Shown piece after piece: positions 7,365-41,927 of a DNA stretch of 64,000 nt. A program made the translations under genes and the position numbers. The stretch's first letter is position 1. Each line of letters begins with the position of its first letter. Where the stretch lies: NCBI GenBank assembly GCA_963809485.1, contig CAWEJX010000019.1, positions 1-64,000 of the forward strand. Reading direction: 5' to 3'. This stretch comes from an uncultured Acidobacteriota bacterium. GTDB taxonomy: Bacteria; Acidobacteriota; UBA6911. The notes under the pieces were generated by a model. That model made no database searches and had not been told where the DNA came from. It saw only the letters and a list, made by a program, of their open reading frames with translations.

Positions 7365-7632
7365 TGCCGCGCTGACTGAAAACAATCCACGTGTCGTGCC
7401 TTGCGGGCGGAATTGGCACAGCCCTCCTCGCCCGCAAGGCACGGTCCTTGCCAGAAGCACAACGTGAATTCCACCGGAGATCCCGCCGCTCAATCCACGG
7501 CAGAGACGCATCGCATGATGCGCCTCGCTCTTTCTCGGAAAAAGAGTTGAGAGATGGCGCGAGAACGGCAAATTCTGCTATATTCGCACTACGTCATTTT
7601 ATTAGCGGCCGGAAACCTTTGGAGGGAACCAA

Positions 7633-9123
7633 ATGAAAAGAGATGGACCATTGCCGGCCTTTCTCGTTTTTTTTCTGCTCATGGCGGCGGCCGCTACGGC
7701 GCAAAAGGCAGACAAACCACCGAGCGTAACCGGAGAGTCTCCCACTACGCTGCAGCAGCAAACTGCACGCAAGCCTATCGTCAGCAAATGGACCGGCGAC
7801 CTGGACGGAATGATCGAGCGGCGCCTCATCCGGATCCTTACGACCTACTCAAAGACACATTACTTTGTCGATCAGGCCACACAGCGCGGCCTGGTTTTCG
7901 ACACAGCAAGCCTGTTCGAGGAAGACCTGAACAAGAAACTCAGGAACAAGAATATCCGGGTGAACGTGGTGGTCGTTCCGGTCTCGCATGATGAACTCAT
8001 CCCGGCTTTGCTGGAAGGGCGGGGAGACATCGTGGCTGCAGGCACGATGATCACGGACCTGCGCAGAGAGAAAGTCGATTTTACCAATCCGACCAGGACC
8101 GGCGTCTCCGTCATTGTTGTCACCGGGCCCGGTGCATCCCCCGTTGCCAGGGTAGAAGACCTGGCAGGCAGGGAGGTGTACCTCCAGCTGTCCATGGTCT
8201 CCTCACAGGGCATCAAACGTTTCAATGACGAACTGGCCAAGAAAGGCCTCCCGCCCGTGAAGATCCGGCCTGCGCCCGAGGTGCTTGCCGAAGAGGACAT
8301 CCTGGAAATGGTCAACGCCGGCCTGGTCAAGACCACCATCGCGTTCGACTACCTCGCCGAGTTCTGGCAGCAGGTCTTCCCGAAAATTGTCCTCAATCGG
8401 AGCGCGGCCGTGAAAACCGACGGTCAGCTCGCCATGATGACCCGCAAGAATAGTCCGCTGCTCAAAGCCGAATTGAACGCGTTTCTCGCGCGCTATCCCG
8501 AAGGTTCCGCGCGACGGAACATGCTGCTGCAGAAATATCTGAAAAGCGTCAAATTCGCAAAAGCGGCGACATCCAGTACCGAGAGGTCCAAGCTTGAGGG
8601 CACCCTAGCATTGTTCCGCAAGTACGGGGAGAAATACACGCTTGATTACCTGCTCATGGCGGCGCAGGGTTACCAGGAATCGCAGCTCGACCAGAACGCA
8701 AAAAGCCATGTAGGGGCGATCGGCGTGATGCAGGTGATGCCGGCGACCGGACAGGAATTGAAGGTCGGAGACATCACGCAGCTCGAACCCAACATTCACG
8801 CCGGAGTGAAGTACATCCGTTTTATGATGGACAGGTACTACGCGACCGAGCCCATGGACCTGCTCAACAAGGGCTTGTTCACGTTTGCAGCCTACAATGC
8901 CGGACCAGGGCGCATCAGCCAGCTGCGCAAGCGCGCGGCCGGCCGCGGCCTTGACCCCAACAAGTGGTTCAATAACGTGGAGGTCCTGGCGGCCGAGTCC
9001 ATCGGGCGAGAGACGGTCCAGTACGTCGCCAACATCTACAAATACTATCTCGCATACCAGATGCTCCTGGAACAGCAGGAGCAGCGACTTAAGACCAAAC
9101 AACAGCCTGCCGGCAAGAAATAG
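7633..9123 (+). CDS. MltF-like lytic transglycosylase (periplasmic-binding domain + SLT domain)
   Basis: Signal peptide, PBP-like N-domain, SLT motifs QESQL, AIGVMQVMP, AAYNAGPG, ETVQYV. Confidence 0.85.
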   Translation: MKRDGPLPAFLVFFLLMAAAATAQKADKPPSVTGESPTTLQQQTARKPIVSKWTGDLDGMIERRLIRILTTYSKTHYFVDQATQRGLVFDTASLFEEDLNKKLRNKNIRVNVVVVPVSHDELIPALLEGRGDIVAAGTMITDLRREKVDFTNPTRTGVSVIVVTGPGASPVARVEDLAGREVYLQLSMVSSQGIKRFNDELAKKGLPPVKIRPAPEVLAEEDILEMVNAGLVKTTIAFDYLAEFWQQVFPKIVLNRSAAVKTDGQLAMMTRKNSPLLKAELNAFLARYPEGSARRNMLLQKYLKSVKFAKAATSSTERSKLEGTLALFRKYGEKYTLDYLLMAAQGYQESQLDQNAKSHVGAIGVMQVMPATGQELKVGDITQLEPNIHAGVKYIRFMMDRYYATEPMDLLNKGLFTFAAYNAGPGRISQLRKRAAGRGLDPNKWFNNVEVLAAESIGRETVQYVANIYKYYLAYQMLLEQQEQRLKTKQQPAGKK

Positions 9124-14556: not shown

Positions 14557-16773
14557 CGAGTCGGCCTTGCGGGAAACTTTCCCGAAAATAATGGCGAATT
14601 GCCAAGGAGGTGCGTTGCCCAGCGCCGGCATCCCGCCAGCCTTGGATCCCCGGGATCAAAGGCTGCCGCCTGGAGGGCGGGGGATTTACACCTGGCGATA
14701 GGGCTGGATGCTGCACACCAGGGGAAGGCTATCACGAAAGTCGTTCCCCTGCCCAATTCGCTGCGCACCTCGATGGTGCCTCCATGATACTGCACATTCT
14801 TAAGACAGGTTGCCAGTCCCAATCCCACTCCGTCCGTGCGCGTTGTAAAAAAGGGCTGAAAGATCTTTTTCTGAAGCTCCTCCGGGAATGCCCGGGCCGT
14901 CGTCGCGCACTTCCATCCGCACGGTCTTCGCGTCATCGGTCGTAATCGAGAACTACTTCAATATGACCGCCTGAAGGCATCGCGTTCTGCGCGTTCAGCA
15001 GCAGGTTCAACAGGACCTGTTCGAGCTGGGTTTCATCTCCGGTAAATTCCGGTATCGGAGCCGTGCTGGCTGAATCGGGATCGAACAGCGCCTGGTTTTT
15101 CGGAGTCGCGCCGGCCATCGCAACGATGCGATGCACAAGCTCGGGCAGATCGATCGGATCTGTGTGAAGGCGGTTTGGGTTTGGCATAATTCAGAAGATC
15201 GCGCACGATCTTATCGATGCGGTTTACTTCATGAATCACGTCCCCGAGAATTTCCTGGTGTTTATCGGACAGAGGCAGCGAATCCCGGATCACATCGATC
15301 GCGCCCTTGATGCCTGCCAGCGGATTCTTGATTTCGTGGGCAAGTCCCGCCGATAACTCGCCGAGCGTCGCCAGGTGTTCCGCATCGGCAAGCTGTTTTT
15401 CGAGGCTCTCGAACGGAGGTGACATCTTTCACCACCGAGGAGCTGCCGATAATCTGTCCTGAATCATCGCGAATGGCGGTGCGCGTAAAAATCACCTGAA
15501 TCCGTCTGCCGTCTTTCGTGATGCGCTCGGTTTGATGGCTGCGAACCGCTCCCTGGGCCCGGAATCTGCGGGAGATCGATTCCAGTTCGCGCGCTTCGCG
15601 GAGTTCGGGCGGGACAAGGATCTGAACCGGTTTTCCCACCATTTCATTGGCGAGATATCCGAAAATGCGCTCGGCGCCTTTGTTCCAGGAAGTGACGATA
15701 TCGTTCGGATCCATCGTCATGATCGCGTCCGCCGAATCGCGGAGGATGTTGGCCATGAACCGGTTTTTCTTGGCAAGCTCATCTTCCAGACGCCGGATCT
15801 TGGTCAGGTCGTGTGCTACCGTGATCGTGCCGACAATTTCGCCCGCCGGTTTCGAATCGCGGAAGCCGACAGCACGACCGGGGTCTTTCTCCCGCCGGGA
15901 GTCACAAACTCCGTGAGGTAATCGCGGAAGCGCTTCTGTTCTTTTAAGCGCTCCATGATCGATGGACTTCGGAATTGCCTCCGACATAGAAAGATCCGAC
16001 TCGTTTGCCGACACCTTCGCTGGGAGAGACTCCCAGAATGTCGCTCGCGCCCTGACTGCAGGATGTGACGAAGCCCTTGGCATCCGTGGTAAAAACAGCA
16101 TCCAAAGAGGTCTGCTCAAGCTCGCATCCCATGTCGCTGATGATGCGCAGGCAGCGGTCAAACCGTTCCGTAAACCGGCCGCCGGCCAGCATCTTTTGGG
16201 TTGGCAGGGCTTCCTCGCCCCAATCGGCCGCAGATTGAAATTCAAATCTGCAGGCGGAATCTCCTTTCGCGCGGCAATGAGTTTCGAGGCAAATGACATC
16301 CGCGCCGAAAAATTCGCTGGCAAATCCGTTGCCGTAACCTTCGAGCGCACAGCAGACGGAATCGGCTGCCGATCCCGTATTGCTGCAGATGGTACTCGAC
16401 TTCGAAGGAGTCGAGCCACTCTCCGTTTAGATGGATTTTTCCCTCAGAGCGGTTGATTTCCAATTCGGTCCAGCCGCGCTTTAGCCATCCCTTCCAGGAA
16501 GTGTAACCTGAGCCCGGCCTGAAGCAATTCTTCGTCGGAAGGCCAGGAATACCGCTTCCGCATCTGGTGCGCGTCGTGCCTTCCGCACTGATATCCAACC
16601 CTCAAAAACTCCCCGGGTCACGTCCCATCCAAGGTTGTCCATGAGTTCGTGACGCATGGCACCGAGGGCGGCCGCAGCGAGACATGACATATCGGTTGTT
16701 CCCGAGACTGATACGTCCGGAAAATGGATCCACCTGGAAGACATCTTCGAATTTTAAGGCTTCTGCTGCGCAT
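14532..16773 (-). CDS. Sensor histidine kinase, XylR_N/V4R + PAS + PAS + HisKA/HATPase (several frameshifts; 3' end approximate)
   Basis: Fragments GRISLGNNRYV/LGAMRHELM/GEWLDSFEV (XylR_N-V4R), WNKGAERIFGY (PAS), LAHEIKNPL, QVLLNLLLNA, FQPFFTT, GVGLGL. Confidence 0.8.
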
Positions 16774-16819
16774 CGGGCTTTGCTGATATATGGGAACAGC
16801 GTCACTTCTGGTCTTCTTT

Positions 16820-17653
16820 TCCTGCCGTTGATCAGGGAGCCGAGTTCGCGCGACCGGGCGGTCGCCGCTTCGACAGCTTCCATGATGGTCGACCGGAAGT
16901 TGCCCTTCTCCAGCATTTTCAATCCGGCGAAAGTCGTCCCGCCCGGAGTGGCCACGATATCCTTCAATTCACTCGGATGCTTTCCGGTTTCCAGGAGCAT
17001 CTTCGCAGCGCCATACACTGTCTGGGCTGCCAGGAGCGAGGATTCCTTGCGGGAGATCCCCAGCTGAACTCCCGCGTCGCTGAGGGACTCGATAACAAGA
17101 AAGACAAAAGCCGGTCCGCTTCCCGAAAGGCCGGTCACGACGTCCATCAAGCGCTTCGTTTTTGATGACTCACCGCGCGCCCGACGCACTCGAAAATCGA
17201 AACGGCGCGCTGGAGATCGGACGGGGAAACATTCCGGCCCGGGACACATGGCCGCGATGCCGGCCAGCACGGACGCAGGCGCATTGGGCATGACTCGGAT
17301 GATCCCGGACTGATGGTGCATTTTGGCGGCAAGTTTTTCCGTTGTGATGCCGGCCGCAATGGAAATGAACAGGTGTCCTTCGTGGCTCGAACTGGAGAGC
17401 TCATCCAGCAGGTCATCGATATTTTGCGGTTTTACGGCGATAATAACGATCGATGCATTGCTCCACCAGTTCCACGTTGGATGAGGCATGCTTGATGCCA
17501 TAGGTTTTTGATATATAGGATCAGACGGTCCTGGCTGACATCGCTGGCCATGATATCTGTTTTTTTCACCTTGCCGGATTGTATCAACCCGCGGATCAGA
17601 ACCTCTCCCATGTTTCCCGCGCCGATGATTCCGACAACTTTTCCGCTCAGCAT
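16820..17653 (-). CDS. proC: Pyrroline-5-carboxylate reductase (frameshifted; 3' end approximate)
   Basis: GIIGAGNMG, AVKPQ, SIAAGI, RVMPN, TGLSGSGPAF, VATPGGTT. Confidence 0.88.
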
Positions 17654-17746
17654 TCAAATCTCCTTTTGTATTCTGTCCGGGGCGAAGGGCTTGCCCCTGG
17701 ATCGGTATTTTCGAAAAACATGAACGGGTTCATGCCCGCGTGCCGC

Positions 17747-19311
17747 TTACCCGGGATGCCCCGTGGCTTTGCAGATGACGGCTGTTATGTCGTCGACTTG
17801 ACGCAATCCGCTCTGAAAAATCCCGGACCGCCTTGATAAAGCCTGTTCACGATTTCCTGAGCGCTTTCCTGGCGGTTGGCCCTGAATGAACTCAAGAGCG
17901 CGTTCCACGCCGAAGGCGCTCTGGTCGGGTCTCTCTGCTTCGGTGATGCCGTCGGTCAGCAGACGCCAGAATTTCGCCCGGCTCCAGCTTGATGGGATCG
18001 CTGCAGTTGAATTTGTGATCCGGCAAAAAACCCAGCGGAATATCCGTGCTTTCCAGAGTCCGTTTGAGAGCGCCGGTGGAATCCAGGATATAGCCGGGAG
18101 TGTGCCCGGCATTGGCATATACGAGAGTTCCTGAACCAGGATGCAGGCGGCAGAATATCAATGTCGCGTAGCGGTCCTGTTCCAGGTCGGATACCAGCGC
18201 GTTGTTCATCAGGGAAAAAAGTCTCGCCGATATCGGAAATCGTTCTGCGCGAAGGCCCGCAAGATATGCCCGCAATTCGGCCATCAGCAACGCGGAGCCT
18301 ATCCCGTGGCCGGAGACATCGCCGATGGCAATCCCGACGCAGTCTCCGGCAGAGGGACAAAATCGAAATAGTCTCCGCCGGTCTCGTCCGCGGGGAACGC
18401 GGCGCCGGCAAGATCGAATCCCTCAATCCGCGGCGGAGGCATGCTGTAAAACTGCTGCTGCACGGCACGCGCCAGGCTTCATCTGAATCTGCTGATCTTG
18501 CAGCTTCCTCTGTTCGGTCACATCCTTGATGACTGTTACGAAGTGAGTGATGTTTCCGGTCGGGCCCCTCATCGGAGTGATCGTCTGTTCCGCATAAAAT
18601 ATCTCTCCGTTTTTCTTGCGGTTGGCGATGGTATGCCGGAAAACCTCCCCGGACAGGATTGTGGACCACAGCCCTTCGTAAAAGGCCTGGTCGTGCACGC
18701 CGGACTTGAGGATTCGGGGGGTGAGGCCGTCCAGCTTCCTGGCGGGAGAATCCGGTGGTCGTCTCAAAAGCCGGATTCACATATTCGATCAACGCCGGCC
18801 TTGTCCGTAATGATGATGCTGTCGGCCGTCTGTTCCACGGCATTGGTCAGCGTTTTCGGACAAGCGTTTCGGTTTCCTTCTTTTGGGTGATGTCGTGAAA
18901 CACAACGACGCTTCCGCGGATATCGCCGCTCCCGTTCTGAAGCGGTTTCGCCTGGACGGCGACCCAGATCCCCAGAGGACATTGTTCATTGCGAATGTAT
19001 ATCTCGGTTTCGGGGACTTTTTTGCCGGCAAGCGCAAGGGTCGAGGGCAATTCGTCGGCTGGATAGGGCGTCATCCCGTCAGGCTTGAAGCAGCCCTGGA
19101 CGTCGGACCAGGAATGGGGGGAATCCTCCCTTGCGGCGGGCGCCAGCACATTCTTCGCGAGCTGGTTGCAGATCAGGAATTTGCCGTCCCGATCCGCGAC
19201 GATCACACCCGCGGTAAGGTGATATAGGGTGGATCGGAGGACTTCAAGCTCGTCTTCCAGAGGCTGCAAAGACCGATTACTTGCTTTATTGGCGGTGGTA
19301 AGAGGATCCAT
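17747..19311 (-). CDS. PAS-PAS-SpoIIE (RsbU-like PP2C phosphatase), several frameshifts
   Basis: PAS fragments (IEYVNPAFETTTG, NRKKNGE), PP2C pieces YANAGH, TDGITEAE, DDITAV. Confidence 0.8.
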
Positions 19312-19528
19312 CCGGGTTTCAACTCCTGCAATTCAATGTACCATGGTTGCCATCCATTTCTCAGATGTAATTCAGAGGCATGAAACAGGTGGGGACTCAC
19401 CTCGCATTTCTCGCAGCTTTTCTGCTGCCTCTGCGGTTCAAAAAGCTTCACAGATGTTTATTGCGCGTGATTCCGGTTTTATGTTTTGTCGGTTGCGATC
19501 AGGCCCCTTTGAGGCGCCGGCAACCATA

Positions 19529-19557
19529 AAGCCTCCGGCTCTGCCGGAGAATACCTA
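19529..19557 (+). repeat. Solo IS200/IS605-like right-end hairpin
   Basis: AAGCCTCCGGCTCTGCCGGAGAATACCT resembles the right end of the MITEs at 28.3, 37.5 and 48.9 kb. Confidence 0.55.
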
Positions 19558-20749
19558 ATCCATGTTGGCAAATCCCTGTTCCAGGTCGCCGATGATGTCG
19601 CGGGGATCTTCGAGGCCGACGGACAGGCGGACGAGTTCGTCGATGATGCCCGAGCTTCATAGCGCTCCTCGCGGCTGAGGTTGTAGTAGCTGTTGAGCGC
19701 GGGGTGGGTGACAAGGGTTTCCGGGCCGCCCAGGCTCGGGCCGAGCATGCACAGTTTCAAGCCGTCGAGGAACTTGAGCGTCTGCTCGAGATTGCCGTTG
19801 ATTTCGAAGGTGACGACGGCGCCGAATCCCTTCATCTGACGTTTGAGGCCAGTTCATATTGGCGATGGCTTGGAAGACCGGGATAATACACGCGGCGTAT
19901 CTGAGGCTGCTTTTCCAGGAATTGAGCAACCTGCATTGCGGTGCTGTTCAGCCGTTCCATCCGCATGCCGAAGGTTTTGAGGCCTCGAATCAGAAGATAG
20001 CAGCTCATTGGATCGGCAACGCCGCCGGTCATGCGGCGCCACTGATAGATCGGCTCGGTAGCTTTCTCCGATCCCAACGCCGCTCCGGAAAGGACATCGT
20101 TGTGCCCGCCCAGATATTTGGTGGCGCTCTGGATGACGATGTCGACTCCCCGTTCGAGCGGCCGGCTGTTGATAGGGCGTGGCAAAAGTGCTGTCGATGA
20201 CGCTGAGCACTTTGTGTGCGCGCGCGATCCGCACAATTTCGTCGATATCGGCGATGTTGAGATACGGATTGGTCGGAGATTCGGAGATGATCATGCGGTG
20301 GAGGGAGTGACGGCCTTTTCCATGGCTTCGTAATCGCCCATGGGGACGACGGTGCAGCTGATACCAAACCGGGGCATGACGCGCTTGACCATCGCCAGGG
20401 TTTGCTTATAGGCATCGTCAGTAATGATGATGTGTTGCCCCTGGATGCAGTTGGACAGGATCGTGGCGGAGACCGCGCTCATGCCGCAGTCGAAGAGGAC
20501 GCAACGCTCGGCGCCTTCGAGGGCGGCCAGTTTGAGCTCGGCGGCCTGGCGCGTCGGGTTGCCGTAGCGGCCGTATTCGTAGTGGTCGATCTCGCCGTTG
20601 GCGAAGGAGACCATTTCGGCAACATCTTTAAAGACAAAGGTACTGGTGTAGTCAATGGGAGTCGTGATGCTGCCCATCCACCGCTTTTCGCCGCAGTGCA
20701 CCGCGATGGTGTCTCGATGTCCGGTCGGTTTTTGCTTAAACTCGTTCAT
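19555..20749 (-). CDS. PLP-dependent Cys/Met metabolism enzyme (cystathionine gamma-synthase/lyase family), several frameshifts
   Basis: YGRYGNPT, ESPTNP, DSTFATP, SATKYLGGHND (PLP Lys), SLGGPETL, ending GFANMD*. Confidence 0.85.
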
Positions 20750-20906
20750 ACAGATCTCCAAATTGCTCTAATTAGGATGGCGCGCCCCAACAGCATCCAG
20801 GTCGGGGCCGATATCAGTCGGATCCGACCGTCATCCGTCAAACGCAAAAAAATATTATTATTATCCCAAATTCCCACTTAGTTGCGATAAATCTGTGCAT
20901 TTGCAG

Positions 20907-20935
20907 TTGGACGTAAAACAGGTTTCTGCTACAAT
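20907..20935 (+). promoter_or_regulatory. Putative sigma70 promoter of selC
   Basis: TTGGAC-17 nt-TACAAT with extended TG, 12 nt before the tRNA. Confidence 0.6.
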
Positions 20936-20947
20936 CACAGCGGCAGC

Positions 20948-21046
20948 GGAGGTGAATCTGGCCTGGTGGCTGGCCTGGACTTCAAATCCAGTTGTGGTTT
21001 ACCGGAAGGTAGGCTAGGTGGGTTCGATTCCCATGCACCTCCGCCA
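20948..21046 (+). tRNA. selC: tRNA-Sec (anticodon UCA)
   Basis: 99 nt; acceptor GGAGGTG/CACCTCC-G-CCA, anticodon arm CTGGA-CTTCAAA-TCCAG, long variable arm, T arm GTGGG-TTCGATT-CCCAT. Confidence 0.95.
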
Positions 21047-21060
21047 CTCTTTTTGGCTTT

Positions 21061-21198
21061 TAACGGTTAACGGGGACGGACCACGATAAGGCCTTCGTAA
21101 GATTATAGATATCTCGGTTTTGGGGATTGTAACGGTTAACGGGGACGGACCACGATAAGGCCTTCGTAAGATTATAGATATCTCGGTTTTGGGGATTG
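21061..21198. repeat. Perfect 69-bp tandem duplication carrying the GGGGACGGACCACGATAA motif
   Basis: 21061-21129 repeated at 21130-21198. Confidence 0.9.
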
Positions 21199-21280
21199 AT
21201 AAAAGGGCTTAGGCGCAACTTTAGGCGGCATTTACGCGTGCAAGGATTTATGGAGCTTCGCTGATTTTTTAATTCAAAGA

Positions 21281-21329
21281 TTTTTCGTGGTCCGACCCCG
21301 AATCCACCCCGAATCCCACCCCGAATTTC
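21281..21329. repeat. Inverted motif TTTTCGTGGTCCGACCCC followed by three CCCCGAAT stutter copies
   Basis: Read directly; inverse partner of the 21069/21138 motifs. Confidence 0.75.
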
Positions 21330-21857
21330 TCAGGGCTTGCCTTTCCCGAATACCGGAATGATAAATTCCTTTTCCAGGTTCTCAGTGCTGAGAAAGGCTC
21401 CCACCTTTCTTGCGACAATGGTCCCATCGATATCGATGAGCAGGCTTGTCGGGAGTTTCCGGACGTCGAGCTTGACGAATAACTCCGTGTTCGGGTCCAG
21501 GAGCACGGGGAGAGCAAGAGCATACCTCTTGGCGTATCCGCGCACCCGGGAAGCGTTCTCGCCCATGTTGATCAAGAGCACCACCAATCCCTTTTCGCGC
21601 CATTGATCCTGGACCTGCCGGAGAACGCTCATTTCATTCAGGCAAGGACCACACCAGGTCGCCCAGAAATTGAGAAGCACGAGCTTTCCCCGAAAGTCAT
21701 TCATCGAGACCGCTTTCCCCCTAATGTCTTTGAGGGAAAAATCGGGGGCCTTTTCCAGGCTCTGCTCCGCGCGGCTCAGTGAGCCGGCCGCTAGAGCAGC
21801 GATCATCAGCAGGGTGGCAACCGCAGCCCGGAACCCGCAGGCTGAGTATCTTTTCAT
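21330..21857 (-). CDS. TlpA/ResA-family exported thiol-disulfide reductase
   Basis: Signal peptide, APDFSL, LLNFWATWCGPC, cis-Pro LPTS. Confidence 0.9.
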   Translation of the reverse strand: MKRYSACGFRAAVATLLMIAALAAGSLSRAEQSLEKAPDFSLKDIRGKAVSMNDFRGKLVLLNFWATWCGPCLNEMSVLRQVQDQWREKGLVVLLINMGENASRVRGYAKRYALALPVLLDPNTELFVKLDVRKLPTSLLIDIDGTIVARKVGAFLSTENLEKEFIIPVFGKGKP

Positions 21858-21896
21858 CTCCTTATCGCCACCCCATCTTTCTCGACCCCTTGCATC

Positions 21897-21915
21897 AGGC
21901 AGAAGACCTCCGCCT
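21897..21915 (-). promoter_or_regulatory. Putative bacterial SECIS element
   Basis: Minus-strand hairpin AGGCGGA-GGTCT-TCTGCCT begins 11 nt after TGA(21927-21929); loop matches fdhF-type AGGUCU. Confidence 0.75.
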
Positions 21916-21923
21916 TGTCGGTT

Positions 21924-23018
21924 CTATCACCCGACGCAGGGGATGAAAGAACGAAATCCCGTCACCACATCGTAACCCATGCAGTCGCGCTTCTCATCAT
22001 AGCGGTTCGGTGCGATATCGCTTCCCGGCAGCGAGAGTGACCATGCGGCGATGCCCCATCTAAGGCTGACCGCGTCATATCCCAGCAGGCTGAGAACAGC
22101 AGCGGCTTGTGCGCTGTCGTGTCCCGTTTCGCAGTAAACGACAATCTGCCTGTCCGGCGGAAGGCGCCGGAGATTTTCCCTGCTGAACAGAGCCCGAAGC
22201 GGAATGTGAAGGCATTTGTCTATATGGCCGAGGCAGTAGGCAGCCTCATCGCGAACGTCGAGGACGAGGGGAGCCACGTAAGGATTCTCGGAAGCATGGA
22301 GAAGGGCATAGAGCTCAGGCGCTGAAAGAGTGAAAGGTTTGCCCAAGTCACTAAAGTAAAGACGGCTTGCCGAGAGGATCGTCTCGAAGCTGTCGCGCCC
22401 TTCGCCGTTTTCAAAATCGGGGAAGTCGTAAGTCTCCTGAGGAGAGTCGAGGCGCTGCACTGTTCTATAGCTACCGCCCGACATCCAGACGGTATCCCTT
22501 GAACTCTCATATCGACCCGGCGCTGCATCACTTTGGGCCGTCCAGGCCGTCATACCCCATTTTAGATTGACCGCGTCGTAGCCGAGCAGATTCAGAATGG
22601 CCGCCGCCTGCCCTCCAATCTGCCCCGTACCGGAATAGACCACAATTTTGCGGTCTTTCGGCAGGTCCTTAAGGTATTTCCAGTCGGCTATGTTTCTCAA
22701 TGGTATATTCACGGCTCCCGGTATGTGACCAAGCGCGTACGGGTTCGGCATATCCGGGTCGGGGGTGCGCAGGTCCACTATTATGGGCCCCTTCCTGAAC
22801 GATGAGGGATCGTAGTTTCGAACGTCGAGGAGCGCCATACTGGAGATCATAGACTCATAAAGCGCCTTCGCATTGATCTCAAGGGGGCGGCCGCTTCCCA
22901 GATAGCCCTCGGCGGCCGCCCTTATCGTTTCGAAGTCGGCGTCTCCACCGTTTGGCGAAGCGCCAAAAACAATAATCACGAACAAAGCTGGAATGATCGC
23001 GAAAAGACGTTTTTTCAT
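21924..23018 (-). CDS. Exported tandem-rhodanese (sulfurtransferase) protein, probable selenoprotein ending CVGU
   Basis: Signal peptide MKKRLFAII..; two rhodanese domains (GHIPGA..VVYSGTG; GHIDKC..VVYCETG); ends TGC GTC GGG TGA TAG followed by SECIS-like hairpin. Confidence 0.8.
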
Positions 23019-23279
23019 GATCGGACCCAAACGCGGAACGGTCTGTCTCACCTCCATTTGCCTAAGGATGCGGGAGAAAGAACGTCGCGCTTTCCATAGC
23101 CCCAGCCTCCGCCGTCTCCGCCGGCAAACACAATCCTGATCTGCTGGGGCGTGAACAATTTCCCATTTCCTGCCTCCCTCAATGTGGAGACACATGCGCC
23201 GGCAAAGAAGTGTCCTTCTTCCTTTTGTATGCTTATGCTCCATTTTCTGACGCGGACGGCATCTTTGTCAAAAGCATTC

Positions 23280-23745
23280 AGAGCTGAATAGTGGCGGGAT
23301 GTGAACGTGTGACGCTTGACGGGGTCACGGGTCTGTTCAGCTGGATGAGGATAGGGACAGAGAGATCGGCTGACCATCCGTTGCCGGGACGCCACTCAGC
23401 GGATCGGATCCCGTATGCCTGTGCTGGCCCGTTCTTGCCGTTTTCATCCGTATCGCAACAAATAGCCGCCTGCATCAACGGCCGCTGACATTGGGAGAAG
23501 CCGTAAAGCGAGTGCAAAGCTGGATCGATCAGCCGTACGTTCGGATCATTCTTCCGACGGAGCAGCACCGGGATATCTTCCAGCGAATGCTCTCTGATGG
23601 AAACGCAACAGCCAATCTCGTACCGGATGCGCATCTGGCGGCACTGGCCGTGGAACACAACTGCAAGTTATGCTCCACCGACGCGGACTTTTCAAGGTTC
23701 CCCGGGCTGAATTGGCGCAACCCCGTCAGCGATAAGAAACGATAG
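23280..23745 (+). pseudogene. 5'-truncated/interrupted PIN (VapC) toxin gene
   Basis: Frame from about 23395 reads LSGSDPVCLCWPVLAVFIRIATN...LVPDAHLAALAVEH...STDADFSRFPGLNWRNP; N-terminal DxN motif and antitoxin absent. Confidence 0.7.
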
Positions 23746-25186: not shown

Positions 25187-25230
25187 TTGATGCAAACGAA
25201 TTGGGCGGATCAGTGTATATTTATTGGCGG

Positions 25231-25350
25231 TATTCTTCGGGGTGAGGTGGAATTCCTCAACCGGCGGTAAAAGCCCGCGAGCGCCGCTGAACGGCGCAGA
25301 ACCTGTGCGATTCAGGTGCCGACGGAAACAGTCCGGATGGTAGAAGAGTA
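25231..25350 (+). ncRNA. FMN riboswitch (RFN element)
   Basis: TTCTTCGGGGTGAGGTGGAATTCC..ACCGGCGGT..AGCCCGCGAGC..GCCGACGG..AGTCCGGATGGTAGAAGA upstream of ribBA. Confidence 0.93.
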
Positions 25351-25383
25351 TGCAAGATTTTCTCTGCAACACTCCATCCATCA

Positions 25384-25408
25384 CCCCGGTATGTGTGCGG
25401 GGTTTTTT
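25384..25408 (+). terminator. Intrinsic terminator, expression platform of the FMN riboswitch
   Basis: CCCCG..CGGGG stem followed by TTTTTT. Confidence 0.75.
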
Positions 25409-25524
25409 ATTGTCCAGCTGATCCCACACATCTTTATAGGAGTCGAGCTCTCGAGCTGGCAGGCAAAGCTCGAGCCGGACATCATGAGTCCTGACGGAAA
25501 ATTGCCACGGAGTGGGTGCAAGAC

Positions 25525-26745
25525 ATGAACGAAGATCCCAGGTTTGATTCCATCGCTGAAGCCATTGAAGATATCAGGCATGGCAAGTGTGTCATCGTGG
25601 TCGACGACGAAGACCGCGAAAATGAGGGAGACCTGATTATGGCGGCGGAGAAAGCCACGCCGGAAATGGTCAACTTCTTCGTCACGCACGGACGCGGGCT
25701 GGTCTGTGTTCCGATGACGGAGGACGATCTGCATCGCCTGGAGCTCGATCAGATGGTGCTCCGGAACACGGCCCTTCTTGGCACCCGGTTCACCGTGTCT
25801 GTGGACGCGCTCGAAGGCACAACGACCGGGATTTCCGCTTACGATCGAGCCCGGACGATCCATGTGTTGGCCGATCCTCAAAGCAGGCCTGAAAACCTGG
25901 GGCGGCCAGGGCACGTCTTCCCCCTCAAAGCCCTCAAGGGAGGCGTGCTAACACGGGCCGGCCATACGGAAGCTACCGTTGACCTGGCTCGTCTCGCCGG
26001 ATTGAGGCCGGCGGGCGTTTTATGTGAAATCATGGATGACGACGGCTCGATGGCCAGGGTGCCGCGTCTCGCGCAGATGGCAAAGCACTTCAACCTCAAA
26101 CTGATCACCGTGCGGGCATTGATTGAATATCGCCGGCGGATGGAGAAACTGGTGCAGAGAGTAACTACCGTCAGGTTGCCGACCCGGGACGGCGAATTCA
26201 GACTGCATCTGTATCGCTCCGAGGTCGACGAGCACCATCACCTTGCCCTGGAACGCGGCAAGGTGGCCGGAGAAAAGAACGTTCTGGTGAGAGTCCACTC
26301 GAGCTGTCTAACCGGCGATGTCTTCGGTTCGCTCCGCTGTGATTGCGGATCCCAGCTCCGCGAAGCTATGCGGATGATCGGCCAGGAGGGACTGGGCGTA
26401 CTGGTTTACATGCGTCAGGAAGGGCGTGGAATAGGTCTGGTCAACAAGCTTCTTGCTTACAAGCTGCAGGAGGAGGGAAAGGACACTGTCGAGGCAAACA
26501 GCGAACTCGGATTCGAGGCCGATCTGCGCGACTACGGTATCGGTGCCCAGATTCTGGCCGATCTTGGTCTTACGTCAATCCGTCTTTTAACGAATAATCC
26601 TCGTAAGGTAGTCGGGCTGAGCGGATATGGATTGGAAATCACCGAAAGGTTGCCGATCGAGGTGCCCGCTTCCGAACACGCCATCAGATATCTTGAAACG
26701 AAACGCGATAAGCTGGGGCATTTGCTGAATCTGAGTACCGACTAG
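25525..26745 (+). CDS. ribBA: Bifunctional DHBP synthase / GTP cyclohydrolase II
   Basis: [52 protein letters not shown]. Confidence 0.95.
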
Positions 26746-31806: not shown

Positions 31807-32694
31807 ATGAAGACCATTACAACTGATTTTGAATATTTACCCGCAACAACGGTTGAGGAGGCTCTCGATCTGCTTTCTCAACACAAAGACGATGATTATA
31901 AAGTCATCGCGGGCGGTCAGTCTTTAAACACCGCAATGAAACACAGACTGATTGCTCCTGAGTTTATTATTGATATTAAAGGCCTTTCGGATCTTGATTA
32001 CATCAAGTTTGATGATCAAGAAGGCCTGAAGATCGGCGCTCTGGCCACGCATCGGTCTCTTGAGAAATCGCCGATCGTTCGCGAAAAGTACCCTGTGCTG
32101 TGTGAGATGGAGGAGAATGTCGCGTCGGTCGAAACGCGAAACTGGGGCACTGTAGCCGGCGATCTTTGCAATGCCGATCCTGCAGTCGATCCTGGGCCGC
32201 CGCTGATTGCATTGGATGCAAAGCTGAAGGTAGCCAGCAAGGACGAAGAAAGAACGGTTGATGCCGAGGAATTTGCCTTGGACTTTTTTGAAACCGTGGT
32301 CCAGCCTGGCGAGATGCTTACAGAAATCCAGATCCCCGTCCTGCCGCCGAATACCGGAGCCTATTTTACAAAATACTCCCAGATTCATGGGGACTATGCG
32401 CTTGCGTCCGTGGCGGTATCAATAACTCTCGATAAAAAGAAGGAAGCATGCACCAACGCCAGAATCGGTCTGGGAGGCGTCGGCGTAAAGCCCATCCGAG
32501 CGAAGAAAGCTGAAGAGGTTCTAAAGGGCAAAAAGATCACCGAGGCTCTGCTTGCTGAGGCGGCCGAGGTAGCGAAAACCGAGATTAGCCCCGTATCCGG
32601 TATCGAGGGATCGGCGGATTACAAGCGAGAGTTGGCGGGAACTTTGCTGAAACGAGTGGGAAAAGAAGCCCTGGCGCGAGCTCAGAAGGCCTAA
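31807..32694 (+). CDS. XO-family FAD-binding subunit (CoxM-like)
   Basis: IAGGQSL, RNWGTVAGDLCNADP, GSADYKR. Confidence 0.9.
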   Translation: MKTITTDFEYLPATTVEEALDLLSQHKDDDYKVIAGGQSLNTAMKHRLIAPEFIIDIKGLSDLDYIKFDDQEGLKIGALATHRSLEKSPIVREKYPVLCEMEENVASVETRNWGTVAGDLCNADPAVDPGPPLIALDAKLKVASKDEERTVDAEEFALDFFETVVQPGEMLTEIQIPVLPPNTGAYFTKYSQIHGDYALASVAVSITLDKKKEACTNARIGLGGVGVKPIRAKKAEEVLKGKKITEALLAEAAEVAKTEISPVSGIEGSADYKRELAGTLLKRVGKEALARAQKA

Positions 32695-32717
32695 TCCATG
32701 ATAAATGGGGGAACGTT

Positions 32718-33275
32718 ATGAAACGGGAGTTAAATATTGTAGTAAACGGAGAGTCGTACAATTTCTTCATAGAGCCTAAGACTCTCCTGGTTCAGGTTCT
32801 AAGGGAAATGTTGGGATTGAGGGGAACCCATCAGGCTTGCGATAGCGGTTCCTGCGCAGCGTGCACCGTTATCGTTGATGGGAAAGCCGTCAAATCCTGT
32901 TCCATTCTAGCGCTGCAGATGAATGGGAAAGAAGTTACGACCATTGAAGGTTTGGCCGACGGCACCAATCTGCATCCAATTCAGCAGGCTTTTATTGACA
33001 ATTGGGCATTCCAATGCGGATTCTGCACGTCCGGACAGATCATGGGTGCCAAGGCGTTTCTGGACGAGAATCCCAATCCAACACGCGAGGAAATCCAGGC
33101 GGCCATGGATGGCCATCTCTGCCGTTGCACCGGCTACAACATGATTAATGAAGCTATCCGGGATGCGGCCAAAAGGCTGCAGGCACTGGAGGCGGCAAAG
33201 AAAGTGCCGGCGCAAAGGGCTCCGCAGGTACAAAAGTGGATGCAGACGGCTAAATCAGGGAAGGGGGCAGCATAA
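32718..33275 (+). CDS. XO-family 2x[2Fe-2S] subunit (CoxS-like)
   Basis: CDSGSCAAC..C, QCGFCTSG, LCRCTGY. Confidence 0.92.
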   Translation: MKRELNIVVNGESYNFFIEPKTLLVQVLREMLGLRGTHQACDSGSCAACTVIVDGKAVKSCSILALQMNGKEVTTIEGLADGTNLHPIQQAFIDNWAFQCGFCTSGQIMGAKAFLDENPNPTREEIQAAMDGHLCRCTGYNMINEAIRDAAKRLQALEAAKKVPAQRAPQVQKWMQTAKSGKGAA

Positions 33276-35596
33276 TGAAAGAATATTCCATAATAGGCAA
33301 GCCGACGCCCAATGTCGATGGGCCGGCGAAGGTTACGGGCGAAGCGGCATATTCAATCGACATCACCTTGCCAAATATGCTTTATGGCAAGCTTCTGAGA
33401 AGTCCTTATCCGCACGCCAAGATCCTCAGCATTGATACCAGCAAGGCAGAAGAGTTTCCGGGCGTAAAATGCGTTATCACGGGCAAGGATACGCCCGGTG
33501 GCAAATGGGGCTTGTGGAGGCGCTTCCGGGAGCTGGCCGATCAGCAGGCTCTCGCCACGGACAAGGTCCGCTTTATCGGGGACCCGGTGGCTGCCGTAGC
33601 GGCAACTACTGAAGAGATCGCCGAAAAGGCTTTGGACCTGATCGAGGTCGAGTATGAGCCGCTGCCGGCTGTATATGATCCGATCGAAGCCATCAAAGAC
33701 GATGCGCCCATGGTGCACGAGGATTTTCCAAGCAATATCAATGCGACCCGTCACATTGAATGGGGAGACGTGGACAAAGGATTTGCCGAAGCCGACTATG
33801 TCCGTGAAGACCGGTACGTGATTGAAGCGGCGCATCCCTGCGCGATGGAAGTGCACAATTCCGTGGCCAGCTATGACAAAGGCACCGGTAGATTGACCGT
33901 GTGGACATCCACCGGATCGCCGTACTTCGTGCAGCAGAACATTGCGGAAGCTCTGAAGCTGCGGGAAGGGGACGTCCGGGTAATAAAGCCCCATGTCGGC
34001 GGCCACTATGGCGGCAAGAATTCAACCATGCCGGACGCAGTCAATGCGGCCATTCTTTCCATGAAGACAGGAAAGCCTGTAAAGATTGTTTTCAACCGCG
34101 ACGAGGAATTTACCACCACGGAGCATCGTACCGCTCAGCATATGGCCCTGAAGATCGGCCTGAAGAAGGACGGAACGATCGTCGCTTTTGAAGCAAAGGC
34201 TATTACCAATGGAGGCGCCTTTACCGGATTGGGGGCTACGACGCTTTTTCTCACCGGCACCTTCATAACCATGCCTTACCGGATACCCAACTATAGATAC
34301 GACGGTGTTCGAGCTTACACGAATATCGTCTGGGGTACGTCGATACGGGGATTCGGCGCCGTTCCCTCGAAGTACTGCGCTGAAACTCAATTAGACCGAG
34401 CGGCCAAGGACCTTGAGATTGATCCGCTGGAAATCCGGCGTAAAAACGCTGTAGCGCCCGGTTACGAAGCTCCGGGTCAATATAAGTTTGAAAGCTGCGG
34501 TATTCAGGCTTGTATCGAAAAGATGGCCGTAAGAGTCAAAGAAAAATGGCCCAAAGTCGAGAAGGATGAAGGCATCGGATACTGCGGATTTGCCTACATG
34601 TCCGGCGGCATCTTCAACTGGATCGATACTCCGTATGCCTATTCATCGGCTCACGTAAAGGTCAACTGGGATGGAACGGTCGATCTGTATAGCCAGGCAG
34701 CCGATGTCGGTCAGGGCCACAACACGGTGGCTGCCATGATCTGTGCCGAAGAACTGGGTATTGGCATCGAGGACATCCGCCTGCATATGGGCGATACCGC
34801 TCATGCCTATACCGATCTCGGCGCCTGGGGCAGCCGGGAAACGTTGATGAACGGCAACGCGATCAAGGATGCCGCTGCCCAGATCAAGCAGAAACTCATT
34901 GATCTCGCAAGGCTGAAGCTGGGCGAGAATATCGCCTATGACCTAGTAGCGAGGAATCACAGAGTCTACCTTGAATTGCGCCCGGAAAGAGGACTCTCCT
35001 ACTACGATCTTGTAAAGGACGCGATCCGGGCAAATGATGGAGTGCCTCTCAGCGGAGTCGGCCACTACACGCCTCACAATAAAGGCATGATCTCTCCTGC
35101 CTACGGTATGGGAATCATGGCGATCAAGGCGAAAGTGGACCGTGAAACGGGTCATGTCACAGCTCAGGATGTTCTCGTAGTGCATGATTCCGGCCAGATC
35201 ATCAATCCTTTGGGTGCACGAGGCCAGGTGGAAGGATCTATTCACATGGGACTGGGGTACGGCCTGTGTGAAGAGATGCCTATGGATCAGGGCATGTTGC
35301 TGAACCCTGAATTCGTGGACTACAAGATCCTCCGGACCCGCGATATGCCGGAGATCGAGATCCTGGACGTTCCTACTTATGAGCCGAATGGCCCATTCGG
35401 CGCCAAGGAAGCTGCCGAAGCAACAATAGCGCCTGCCGCTCCTGCGCTGGCAAATGCCGTATATCAAGCCTGCGGAGCGGAGTTCTTCAGCAACGTCTTA
35501 AAACCTGAAAAGGTTTTGAAGGCACTCAGAGAAAAAGAGAAAAAAGACAAGGAAAGCGCAAAATCCAAAGCACCTTCCAAGGCAAAAGGTAAATAA
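33275..35596 (+). CDS. XO-family molybdopterin subunit (4-hydroxybenzoyl-CoA reductase alpha-like C-terminus)
   Basis: KVTGEAAY, LRSPYPHAKI, VGGHYGGK, RGFG, GQGHNT, GQVEG, GPFGAKEAAE. Confidence 0.9.
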   Translation: MKEYSIIGKPTPNVDGPAKVTGEAAYSIDITLPNMLYGKLLRSPYPHAKILSIDTSKAEEFPGVKCVITGKDTPGGKWGLWRRFRELADQQALATDKVRFIGDPVAAVAATTEEIAEKALDLIEVEYEPLPAVYDPIEAIKDDAPMVHEDFPSNINATRHIEWGDVDKGFAEADYVREDRYVIEAAHPCAMEVHNSVASYDKGTGRLTVWTSTGSPYFVQQNIAEALKLREGDVRVIKPHVGGHYGGKNSTMPDAVNAAILSMKTGKPVKIVFNRDEEFTTTEHRTAQHMALKIGLKKDGTIVAFEAKAITNGGAFTGLGATTLFLTGTFITMPYRIPNYRYDGVRAYTNIVWGTSIRGFGAVPSKYCAETQLDRAAKDLEIDPLEIRRKNAVAPGYEAPGQYKFESCGIQACIEKMAVRVKEKWPKVEKDEGIGYCGFAYMSGGIFNWIDTPYAYSSAHVKVNWDGTVDLYSQAADVGQGHNTVAAMICAEELGIGIEDIRLHMGDTAHAYTDLGAWGSRETLMNGNAIKDAAAQIKQKLIDLARLKLGENIAYDLVARNHRVYLELRPERGLSYYDLVKDAIRANDGVPLSGVGHYTPHNKGMISPAYGMGIMAIKAKVDRETGHVTAQDVLVVHDSGQIINPLGARGQVEGSIHMGLGYGLCEEMPMDQGMLLNPEFVDYKILRTRDMPEIEILDVPTYEPNGPFGAKEAAEATIAPAAPALANAVYQACGAEFFSNVLKPEKVLKALREKEKKDKESAKSKAPSKAKGK

Positions 35597-35610
35597 GGAG
35601 GAAATCGCAC

Positions 35611-35838
35611 ATGCCTAATTATCGTTGTCCAATGTGTCGCAAAATCTGTTCCGAGCATCTTGATTTGGCCAGGCACTATCTGGGACAGACCGACAAAAAA
35701 CACAAGGACTGGCTCAAAACCCAGGGGCTTTCCTATGCTGCTTTGATTAAGGCCCAGGTTACCGAATTCGGGAATAAGGGCTATCAGGCCCTGGCTGACG
35801 TACTCAAGAAAACAGCCGCCGAAGTCAACGAAGGATAG
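35611..35838 (+). CDS. Small C2H2 zinc-finger-like protein
   Basis: Strong RBS AGGAGG; CPMC-x12-H-x8-H. Confidence 0.7.
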   Translation: MPNYRCPMCRKICSEHLDLARHYLGQTDKKHKDWLKTQGLSYAALIKAQVTEFGNKGYQALADVLKKTAAEVNEG

Positions 35839-35850
35839 ACTATAAGGCCA

Positions 35851-35888
35851 CAACCCCAGGCATTGAGTCCGCTCAATGCCTGGGGTTG
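35851..35888 (+). terminator. Strong hairpin (terminator/mRNA stabiliser) after XO operon 1
   Basis: Perfect 17-bp stem CAACCCCAGGCATTGAG / CTCAATGCCTGGGGTTG; no clear U tract. Confidence 0.55.
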
Positions 35889-36083
35889 CTCGATTGCGTA
35901 AGCACCATTTAATTAAGTTCAACAAAAAATCATTCATGCAGGTTGCTGCGACGGTTGTTTCTGTACGAGCGGCTGTTTAAACCGGTTGACCATAGTCCTG
36001 CGGGTCTACAAGGGATTTGAATCAGCACAGAAGAATTCATTCGACCCATAGCAGATGCTTCTGAGAGAGAAAGGAGTTTTGAA

Positions 36084-36530
36084 ATGATTATCGACGGGCA
36101 ATTTACCCTGCAAGCGCCCATTCAAAAGGTCTGGGATCACCTGCTCGATCCCAAAACACTGGGTACCTGTGTTCCAGGTACGGAAAAAATGGAAGCCATT
36201 GATAAAGAGACGTATGAAAGCGTCGTTGCGCAGAGAGTAGGGCCATTCAAGATTAAGCTGAAATTTACGACAAAGTTGACCGAAGTGCGTCCGCCGAATT
36301 ACATCAAAGCGGTTGGCAGAGGCGCCGATGTGACCAAGCTTGGCAATTTCTCGACTGAAATCGAGGTCAAACTGAACGAAACTTCCCCCAACGTTGTCGA
36401 TGTTTCCTATACGGCCAATGTTAGCCTCGTTGGACGGCTGGCAACCTTCGGCGAGAGAATCATGCGGGCCAAGGCAAAGGAAGTTGGAGACGAATTCACC
36501 AGAAATCTGCAGGAAAAACTCAAAGGCTAG
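36084..36530 (+). CDS. CoxG/SRPBCC-family protein
   Basis: APIQKVWDHLLDP..CVPG..VGPFK..GRLATFGER; next to CoxMSL-like genes. Confidence 0.85.
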   Translation: MIIDGQFTLQAPIQKVWDHLLDPKTLGTCVPGTEKMEAIDKETYESVVAQRVGPFKIKLKFTTKLTEVRPPNYIKAVGRGADVTKLGNFSTEIEVKLNETSPNVVDVSYTANVSLVGRLATFGERIMRAKAKEVGDEFTRNLQEKLKG

Positions 36531-36841
36531 CCTGCCGAAATTCCGCGGCCCGCGGCCCGGCAAGTTGGGCCGCAATCATGATGGCCAAACGGAATATGGC
36601 GGTTGCCTCGAGAGCGATTCCTGCTCGCCCCGGATGCGGACATTCTTGAACCTGATGTCCGCATCCAACCCCGCCGGATTCAAACATATCTTTTGACCAT
36701 GCCAGGCCCGGCGATTCTGGTCCGGCGCGGCCACTCCCAATCGGCCGGCCTCGGTTCCAGGTCCGCATTCTCTTATCGAGCTTGATGGATTTCTTGCGGA
36801 GAAGACGAACCGGAACGCCAGAATTTGTGTTCTGCGAGGAA

Positions 36842-38662: not shown

Positions 38663-38663
38663 C

Positions 38664-41915: not shown

Positions 41916-41927
41916 AGGAGAGATGAG

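Follow-up and report, generated by a model that had tools for sequence, protein, structure and literature searches.

We report a predicted selenoprotein gene and its downstream neighbour in a 64,000-nucleotide stretch of DNA from an uncultured Acidobacteriota bacterium (contig CAWEJX010000019.1, positions 1 to 64,000; hereafter the window, whose positions serve as coordinates throughout). The gene (21924..23018, minus strand) encodes an apparently exported protein with two rhodanese domains and a C-terminal Cys-x-x-Sec tail, in which an in-frame TGA codon is very probably read as selenocysteine (Sec). It is followed by a gene for an exported TlpA/ResA-type thioredoxin-fold protein (21330..21857, minus strand). 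In the explanation that we favour, which we hold to be somewhat better than an even chance, this two-gene cassette would specify a swinging-arm carrier or reductase of sulfur or selenium that is recycled by the TlpA-like protein. The Sec assignment, the family anatomy, the linkage pattern and the locus history presented below are computed results; loci, genomes, proteins and contigs carry labels beginning with L, G, P and C, respectively.

The rhodanese open reading frame (ORF) matches two PF00581 domains of Pfam (112.5 bits over two stretches, E 1.5e-32). Its start is placed at 23018, where the N-terminus reads MKKRLFAIIPALFVIIVFGA, and an alternative ATG lies upstream at about 23057. The signal peptides of both exported proteins, each consisting of a basic n-region and a hydrophobic stretch, were assigned by eye without a predictor. 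The first active-site loop, YSGTGQ, carries Ser (S129) at the catalytic position, and the second, YCETGH, carries Cys (C296). The protein ends in FIPCVG, followed by the only TGA of the frame (21929..21927, minus strand) and directly by a TAG stop codon (21926..21924, minus strand), giving a predicted tail of C361-V-G-U364. RNA folding and covariation identified a hairpin resembling a bacterial Sec insertion sequence (bSECIS) at 21897..21915 (minus strand; AGGCGGA-GGUCU-UCUGCCU). This hairpin starts 11 nucleotides past the UGA, which places it downstream of the TAG stop, within the spacer that precedes the TlpA gene. A UGA-to-hairpin spacing of 11 nucleotides is also the rule for E. coli fdhF.

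To compare the ends of related genes, DNA was taken from 82 loci, 80 from species genomes and two from metagenomes (L113 and L114). A metagenome scan with the single protein yielded no loci beyond these two. TGA occupies the tail codon in all 10 loci that encode a C-x-x tail (L033-L038, L041, L113, L114 and the window), which span 44-100% identity, and in each of these a real stop follows after 0-3 codons. Among the other 71 loci with a readable end, TGA is the terminator in 15. The hairpin was present in 8 of the 8 loci that were folded, with a stem of 6-7 base-pairs, a 5-nucleotide loop containing an invariant G, and a start 11-15 nucleotides after the UGA. When 10 hairpin sequences were aligned, 98.6% of the cells were paired and six of the seven pairs carried changes on both sides. 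None of 500 shuffles scored as high, and slid registers fell to 34-63% paired. The TGA and the hairpin, both kept in all 10 tailed loci, are not a product of chance.

The TGA could instead be a plain stop, the first half of a TGA-TAG double stop, with the hairpin serving as a terminator or an mRNA-stability element downstream of an ordinary Cys-tailed rhodanese. Tandem stops do occur, the spacer folds with unexceptional energy (z = -1.3), and an Rfam search of the spacer at E values up to 10 returned no SECIS family. The last result does not decide the matter in either direction. We nevertheless regard a plain stop as extremely unlikely, because the TGA always falls two residues past the conserved Cys, the hairpin keeps its spacing, loop size and compensatory stem changes, and the hairpin lacks the T-run of a terminator. 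In addition, a homologue from Dehalococcoidales (L068) ends PCPTC-PY, such that its second Cys aligns with the UGA of PCVG-U. This Cys form is a single example, and no CxxC tail was found among 147 further representatives that were inspected (described below).

The genome is also equipped to decode UGA, since it encodes selA, selB, selD and selC, all scoring above curated cut-offs, and its selD itself contains one in-frame TGA. SelB was found in four of five Dehalococcoidales metagenome-assembled genomes (MAGs) that carry the rhodanese gene, above its cut-off in three, and the genome of L041 (G433) carries a Sec-containing selD. The invariant TGA, the covarying hairpin, the Cys-form homologue and the sel genes together make Sec the predicted residue with high confidence, and the protein, proposed in an earlier, preliminary description of this DNA as a CxxU-tailed selenoprotein candidate, emerges from the comparison strengthened.

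Among 5.8 billion proteins searched, 637 matched at E values up to 1e-5, and the best 120 of these were examined. Gene callers truncate the rhodanese at the TGA: among the matches listed are 77 two-domain proteins of at most 430 amino acids, and 65 of these are predicted to end exactly at C-x-x, with endings such as CPG, CKA and CPT. None of the 43 longer proteins among the listed matches ends two residues after a Cys. The window protein and 52 of the 120 listed matches, all two-domain forms, were combined in alignment A1, from which near-duplicates and all proteins longer than 500 amino acids were left out.

This alignment points to the tail as the functional centre of the family. In loop 1, 51 of the 53 sequences have Ser at the catalytic position; in loop 2 this position is most often Ser (35), with Cys in 12, Asp in 4 and Gly in 2. 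In comparison, the tail Cys is kept in 45 of the 53 sequences, and a further Cys (C346, within 'RDC') is present in 41. We therefore propose, as part of the favoured explanation and with the same limited confidence, that the conserved reactive centre would be the C-terminal tail and not a cysteine of a rhodanese loop. This distribution also bears on the preliminary description, which had the tail resolve a persulfide formed on the domain-2 Cys. Loop 2 carries Cys in only 10 of the 44 tailed members of A1 (the window, P0001-P0003, P0005-P0009 and P0020) and Ser in 29 of them, which rules out such a step as the mechanism of the family. A persulfide on C296 may form in the clade of the window protein, but is not general.

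About half of the A1 sequences have a signal peptide or a lipobox, as judged by eye. Members of the Dehalococcoidales 'CKA-U' group have no signal peptide by the same criterion and should therefore be cytoplasmic. An AlphaFold2 (AF2) model of the window protein has a mean predicted local distance difference test (pLDDT) value of 86.9 and a predicted template modelling (pTM) score of 0.87, with low confidence at the N-terminus, in the interdomain linker and at tail residues 355-364. Low pLDDT in the tail of an otherwise confident model suggests that the Cys-x-x-Sec arm is probably mobile. A Foldseek search of the PDB matched rhodaneses with whole-chain TM scores of only 0.25-0.29, and no solved chain in that database showed the same two-domain arrangement or tail.

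Traces of a C-terminal reactive residue extend beyond the tailed proteins. A profile search of 1.84 billion representatives returned 289 clusters at E values up to 1e-30, and 147 further representatives were inspected. Six of these have Cys as the third-from-last residue. In P0132, P0147 and P0185 this Cys belongs to the conserved tail of the family and the protein stops two residues past it, as expected if the sequence were truncated at UGA; in P0157, P0158 and P0241 the tails are unrelated. Another 15 of the 147 have a different Cys within the last eight residues, often as ...CG, and the genes at L043, L051 and L101 end GGGCG, GPCG and GGCGG before a TAA stop. Given these Cys tails, the wider clade seems to share the trait of bearing a reactive residue on an arm at the C-terminus, and Sec would be the extreme form of this trait. 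The distant members P0144, P0157, P0219, P0240, P0261 and P0263 have glycine-rich tails with a single Cys (...CG types) that are reminiscent of the arm of SoxY.

Orthologs of the rhodanese were sought in 24 genomes of the same genus and 16 of the same class, in 400 further genomes of the phylum, and in 300 genomes of the class to which G433 belongs. Each of these searches yielded generic single-domain rhodanese matches only, and none of them added further contexts. Among the same-genus and same-class genomes, G034 is unpublished and enters this negative count alone. A separate arrangement was seen at six Dehalococcoid loci (L045, L047, L048, L049, L050 and L107; for example L047:5001-7202), where a related rhodanese ends ...SGEG-TGA and the frame continues. 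Where the locus allows, these frames run on for 364-365 amino acids into a multihaem cytochrome c region (Cytochrome_C7 / c3_2), and these loci may encode a fusion of rhodanese with cytochrome made by Sec read-through.

The protein looks like an undescribed form of rhodanese selenoprotein. Its nearest described analogue is SelTryp of Kinetoplastida (PMC1557815), which, in the portions of that paper on which we draw, is a selenoprotein in which two rhodanese domains precede a C-terminal tail, predicted to be flexible, that bears CxxU. A selenenylsulfide cycle was proposed for SelTryp, its location is predicted to be mitochondrial, and its function is listed as not established. SelTryp shares the two rhodanese domains and the C-terminal CxxU tail with the window protein, but according to the same portions it comes from eukaryotes and relies on a eukaryotic SECIS, bears a metallo-beta-lactamase domain at its N-terminus and carries Cys in both loops (CXGGXR). 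Members of the window family are bacterial, about 360-400 amino acids long and either exported or cytoplasmic, and mostly have Ser in both loops. This comparison is one of descriptions only, and the common ground is the rhodanese fold.

Catalogues of bacterial selenoproteins contain other rhodanese-like forms. In the portions consulted, a 2026 review (PMC13188914) gives five, with motifs UxxS, UxxG, CxU (NF041203), UxxG and UxxxxU (TsoB), and a 2022 review (PMC9312934) gives three. These catalogued proteins resemble the window protein in combining PF00581 with Sec and in coming from Deltaproteobacteria-type anaerobes and metagenomes, but as presented there none of forms 1-5 has a C-terminal CxxU. 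The window protein scores 25.4 bits against NF041203 (cut-off 115) and 18.6 bits against NF045694, the TsoB model (cut-off 805), and no NCBIfam model reaches its cut-off on this rhodanese. The 'rhodanese-related sulfurtransferase' selenoproteins of the Olavius (PMC1976440) and Sargasso (PMC1088965) papers are likewise without a C-terminal CxxU in the passages that treat them, and no such rhodanese is named in the corresponding portions of a 2015 comparative study of selenium-linked genes (PMC5322559). Our literature search for a bacterial rhodanese selenoprotein with a C-terminal CxxU found no description, with the reservation that the supplements of the reviews, which were outside its scope, may list more forms.

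The second gene of the cassette encodes a protein of 175 amino acids with the motif WATWCGPC and a signal-peptide-like start, as judged by eye. It matches AhpC-TSA (88 bits) and Redoxin (83 bits) but remains under the curated cut-offs of the ResA subfamily (114.5 versus 170 bits) and the TlpA equivalog (76.8 versus 230 bits), and is therefore, as judged by these models, a member of the TlpA/ResA thiol:disulfide oxidoreductases at the family level only. The spacer between the TAG of the rhodanese gene and the TlpA start is 66 nucleotides long, an AAGGAG Shine-Dalgarno sequence precedes the TlpA gene, and no terminator-like site lies between the two genes. This spacing, the shared strand and the lack of such a site suggest a single transcript. 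In metagenome run X1, one contig bridges the TlpA gene and the 3' part of the rhodanese gene.

Whether this pairing is typical was assessed by surveying the 82 loci, within the flanks that were fetched, using tblastn and a hidden Markov model (HMM) built from four TlpA sequences. Such a gene-neighbourhood survey had been put forward in the preliminary description. The rhodanese and the exported TlpA-like protein form a tight pair, which recurs at L113, a metagenome contig with the same arrangement, where the rhodanese is 91% and the TlpA 87% identical to those of the window; this locus is not independent of it. At L041, in a Deltaproteobacteria MAG, the rhodanese is 47% and the TlpA 50% identical, and the pair is rearranged with different intervening genes. 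At L083, from Nitrospinae, the order is a TPR protein, TlpA, a small ORF without a family match and a rhodanese, with DsrE nearby; this rhodanese has no Sec tail. The linkage thus stands, but three results weigh against giving it a general role. A TlpA-like gene lies within 5 kb at only 3 of the 82 loci, these being the same loci from which the HMM was built; the linked loci effectively represent two or three independent lineages; and no TlpA accompanies any of the six Dehalococcoidales CxxU loci, whose neighbours vary and whose proteins have no signal peptide. Exported members of two or three lineages do truly have this pairing, which is not family-defining. Beside one cytoplasmic Dehalococcoidales member (L033, from a MAG), two genes of the UGSC family, a known selenoprotein family, flank the Sec-tailed rhodanese at 2023-2445 and 7477-7854.

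On these data the rhodanese selenoprotein and TlpA could also be neighbours without a shared function. The tail would then be recycled by something else, and TlpA would serve cytochrome c or copper-protein maturation or a general repair of envelope thiols. TlpA-like genes are common and have many clients, 79 of the 82 family loci have none, and with ResA and TlpA scores under the NCBIfam cut-offs no particular client is indicated. We consider this explanation rather unlikely, given that the spacing, strand and uninterrupted spacer suggest one transcript and that the linkage recurs in L041, at low identity and with other intervening genes, and in L083.

The mechanism that we favour for the cassette would proceed as follows. 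Gene 1 would supply an exported tandem rhodanese with a flexible Cys-x-x-Sec tail, its UGA being decoded by way of a SelB-type hairpin located after the real stop, and gene 2 an exported thiol:disulfide reductase of the TlpA/ResA type. The tail selenolate would attack a sulfane-sulfur or selenium species (polysulfide, thiosulfate or selenite-derived selenium) held in the anion-binding cradle of the rhodanese, and the sulfur or selenium would then be carried covalently on the tail in the manner of a swinging arm. The adjacent tail Cys would resolve this adduct to give a selenenylsulfide, which TlpA would re-reduce, TlpA itself being kept reduced by the DsbD-type (DsbD/CcdA) protein of the genome; the only DsbD_TM gene found in this genome lies elsewhere. 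In the clade of the window protein, C296 of the domain-2 loop may add a persulfide station, and in cytoplasmic family members thioredoxin would take the place of TlpA. We infer this chemistry, the substrate and the path of electrons through TlpA, and the tail probably carries either sulfur or selenium. Both readings of the substrate fit, which counts as a weakness of the proposal.

These steps are borrowed by analogy from three systems. In mammalian thioredoxin reductase, a near-terminal Sec next to Cys (GCUG) sits on a mobile C-terminal arm and alternates between selenenylsulfide and selenolate-thiol. The window family is similar in placing Cys and Sec on a C-terminal arm, and L036, L037 and L038 end C-x-x-U-G, but thioredoxin reductase has another fold and draws its electrons from a flavin/dithiol centre within the protein, not from a second protein with the thioredoxin fold. 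SoxY, which belongs to the periplasmic Sox system, is exported and holds sulfur intermediates covalently on the Cys of a glycine-rich C-terminal swinging arm (GGCGG). The distant rhodanese members ending GGGCG, GPCG, GGCGG or CG resemble it in the tail only, by analogy, since SoxY has neither a rhodanese domain nor Sec. Finally, the single-domain rhodaneses GlpE and PspE, the latter periplasmic, pair with a thioredoxin-family sulfur acceptor or reductant. These rely on the loop Cys and lack a Sec tail, whereas in the window protein loop 1 has Ser and the loop 2 Cys is confined to its own clade.

The cassette lies beside selC, the gene for tRNA-Sec (20948..21046, plus strand; anticodon TCA; detected by ARAGORN and by Rfam model RF01852 at 70.6 bits). 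The rhodanese and TlpA genes share a strand and converge on selC, from which a gene for a pyridoxal phosphate (PLP) enzyme of Cys/Met metabolism (Cys_Met_Meta_PP; about 20761..19555, minus strand) is divergent. All sequence facts of this layout, including the exported TlpA with WCGPC after 66 nucleotides, are as given in the preliminary description, which went on to read the rhodanese, TlpA, selC and the PLP enzyme as one extracytoplasmic selenium/sulfur-transfer system with the tail resolving a domain-2 Cys persulfide. The physical arrangement fits that model, members of the clade of the window protein (the window and P0001-P0009) have the domain-2 Cys, and a different PLP enzyme, of class V, precedes the rhodanese in L041. 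We nonetheless judge the model very unlikely, in part because 34 of the 44 tailed members do not have the domain-2 Cys and in part because of the history of the locus.

That history was traced in congeners, 27 of 29 of which yielded a tRNA-Sec. The left neighbour of selC is the PLP gene in 17 of these 27 loci, a sensor gene (window 18.1-19.2 kb) in 7 and without a match in 3. No rhodanese or TlpA gene was found at any of the 27 selC loci, and a search with the protein through 24 genomes of the same genus turned up no ortholog of the rhodanese. The adjacency of the PLP gene to selC is thus ancestral synteny, and this gene stands outside the cassette. Moreover, the gene is split over four frames in the window by indels of -1, +1, +2 and +2 at about 20296, 20171, 19842 and 19655, a break that the preliminary description did not remark on, while it is open over 401-423 amino acids in the four congeners checked for an open frame. 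Several of these indels are missing from the contigs of relatives in three metagenome runs. The enzyme has no signal peptide (by eye) and would be cytoplasmic. We therefore rejected the PLP gene as a component of the system, and the PLP and selC parts of the four-member model are largely refuted. Nearby, proC (16602-17657) and a PAS sensor region (17900-19300), both within 16602-20761, are likewise split over frames; the breaks in these genes and in the PLP gene represent either local decay or a local assembly error. The rhodanese and TlpA genes are intact, as are the MFS and ribBA genes to the right of the cassette.

On the other side of selC the congeners diverge. Only G006 (L116) matches the right flank of the window: identity stops at the tRNA end (21047) and resumes at about 23516, and in place of the 2.5-kb block G006 holds 355 unrelated bases with a gene fragment. 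Within 1.5 kb, the right flanks of the other 26 of the 27 congeners show no relation to that of the window. Comparison with G006 and L113 defines a variable block (21047..23515), present in the window and L113, that comprises repeats, the TlpA and rhodanese genes and about 500 nucleotides upstream, the last including a promoter-like site (23271..23242). Its left edge is formed by two tandem copies of a dispersed 69-nucleotide repeat (21050..21187) directly 3' of tRNA-Sec. Nine further partial copies of this repeat occur on genome contigs C4, C7 and C12, and relatives carry one copy. Gene debris at the right edge includes a C-terminal fragment of a PIN (VapC-like) gene (23491..23745, plus strand). 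Extra copies of the 3' half of tRNA-Sec were found in G015, G022 and G429, that of G015 (C7:1453063-1467517) lying 14.4 kb downstream of selC. The spacing in G015 is as expected for islands integrated at selC; the copies in G022 and G429 are on C282 and C97. Word depth over 21012-21135 in metagenome contigs was very high, at about 500-900 in three of four runs although 52 in the remaining one, and suggests a short element that is dispersed.

The 2.5-kb block therefore belongs to a stretch 3' of selC that is variable and rich in debris, as at tRNA integration sites, and selC is such a site in enterobacteria. Three results weigh against calling it a recent island: no integrase-like ORF was found in 21047-23515, no second same-strand copy of the last 18-30 nucleotides of the tRNA was found within the window, and the G+C content of the cassette matches that of the flanks. 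The term accordingly rests on the congener comparison, in which one genome (G006) shares the right flank. An 18-nucleotide stretch at 10055 (minus strand), which matches the tRNA end with 3 mismatches, was considered as an att site and rejected because of its inverted orientation and its distance of 11 kb, on the opposite side. The variable stretch and the presence of the PLP-selC pair in cassette-less congeners mean that clustering at selC, which had been taken as functional, is better explained by locus history, and the adjacency of the cassette to selC looks incidental, a matter of position.

A link to selenium metabolism, another element of the preliminary description, is seen in the neighbours of two relatives. 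The order at L041 is DsbD_TM (cut by the contig end), a cysteine desulfurase family gene, the Sec-tailed rhodanese, MauE/DoxX, an ORF without a family match, a TlpA-like gene and YedE. The desulfurase, a class V PLP enzyme, scores 440 bits against TIGR01977 and 357 bits against the model for selenocysteine lyase SclA, the latter under the cut-off, and the putative selenium transporter YedE scores 422 bits against TIGR04112 (cut-off 200). A compact selenium cluster in a Dehalococcoidia MAG (L070:1675-8259) contains YedE (459 bits), two ORFs without an assignment, a YedF-like fragment, a P-type ATPase fragment and a selenium-associated LysR gene (NF040786, 259 bits versus a cut-off of 250). Here a relative of the rhodanese sits between the YedF-like gene and a selD with an in-frame TGA; it is a single-domain lipoprotein, 42% identical to domain 2 of the window protein, with a loop Cys and the tail SPCGVY. 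The cluster is ordered with YedE, the two ORFs and the YedF-like fragment ahead of this relative, and selD and then the LysR gene behind it.

These contexts raise the possibility that the cassette is a selenium-acquisition device. An exported Sec- or Cys-tailed rhodanese would capture or reduce selenite or elemental selenium outside the cytoplasm with electrons from TlpA/DsbD, the selenium would be passed to a YedE-type importer for SelD, and the place beside selC would be another case of selenium genes clustering. The desulfurase family, DsbD_TM, TlpA-like and YedE genes that flank the rhodanese of L041 are consistent with this proposal, as is the position of the L070 lipoprotein among YedF-like, Sec-containing selD, YedE and LysR genes, all in 7 kb; in addition, selenium is reportedly bound by rhodanese as a perselenide in vitro. 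Taken as a whole we give the proposal limited credence, well short of an even chance. YedE lies within 5 kb at only 2 of the 82 loci, so that the selenium connection has support from those neighbours but does not extend across the family. Within this genome, YedE, selD, selA and selB lie on contigs other than that of the cassette, nothing else selenium-specific was found across window positions 3641-42878 (about 17 kb upstream and 21 kb downstream of the cassette), and the cassette occupies a variable stretch next to selC. The YedE-family transporter of this genome (TIGR04112; G000:C20:626857-627898) matches in two overlapping pieces in different frames, reflecting a frameshift or a split gene.

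A bolder extension of the same idea concerns the entire (pseudo)rhodanese family, and we offer it as a doubtful one. In this widespread family the nucleophile might have shifted from the active-site loop onto a mobile C-terminal arm. That arm reads Cys-Gly in many members, and at least 65 protein clusters have Cys-x-x-Sec. The exported forms might then perform an opening step of selenium acquisition that takes place outside the cytoplasm and has so far been missing. Selenite or elemental selenium (Se(0)) would be captured by the arm and reduced with electrons that flow from DsbD/CcdA through TlpA, and selenium would move from the arm to YedE and then to YedF and SelD.

Other features of the window were noted as well. 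An FMN riboswitch (RF00050, 103 bits) lies upstream of ribBA (DHBP synthase / GTP cyclohydrolase II) within 25229-26745, an ordinary arrangement. A radical SAM/SPASM gene adjoins a sulfatase gene at 4180-7364 in what looks like a maturase-sulfatase pair, and two gene sets of the xanthine-dehydrogenase family (FAD, 2Fe-2S and molybdopterin subunits) occupy 31807-42878.

Catalogued rhodanese selenoproteins carry Sec in or near the active-site loop. In the family described here the loops mostly have Ser, the Cys-x-x-Sec arm is what is conserved, and the hairpin follows the stop codon. The family would therefore add a form to the prokaryotic selenoproteome and a bacterial counterpart of the unexplained SelTryp. 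The Sec-tailed rhodanese and TlpA would provide a tractable two-protein system for studying how thiol-reducing pathways of the envelope drive sulfur or selenium chemistry, and the links to YedE, YedF, SelD and an SclA-like enzyme in two relatives make the question of bacterial selenium uptake and delivery directly testable. If the arm does perform the first step of selenium acquisition, a selenoprotein would help to supply selenium for selenoprotein synthesis.

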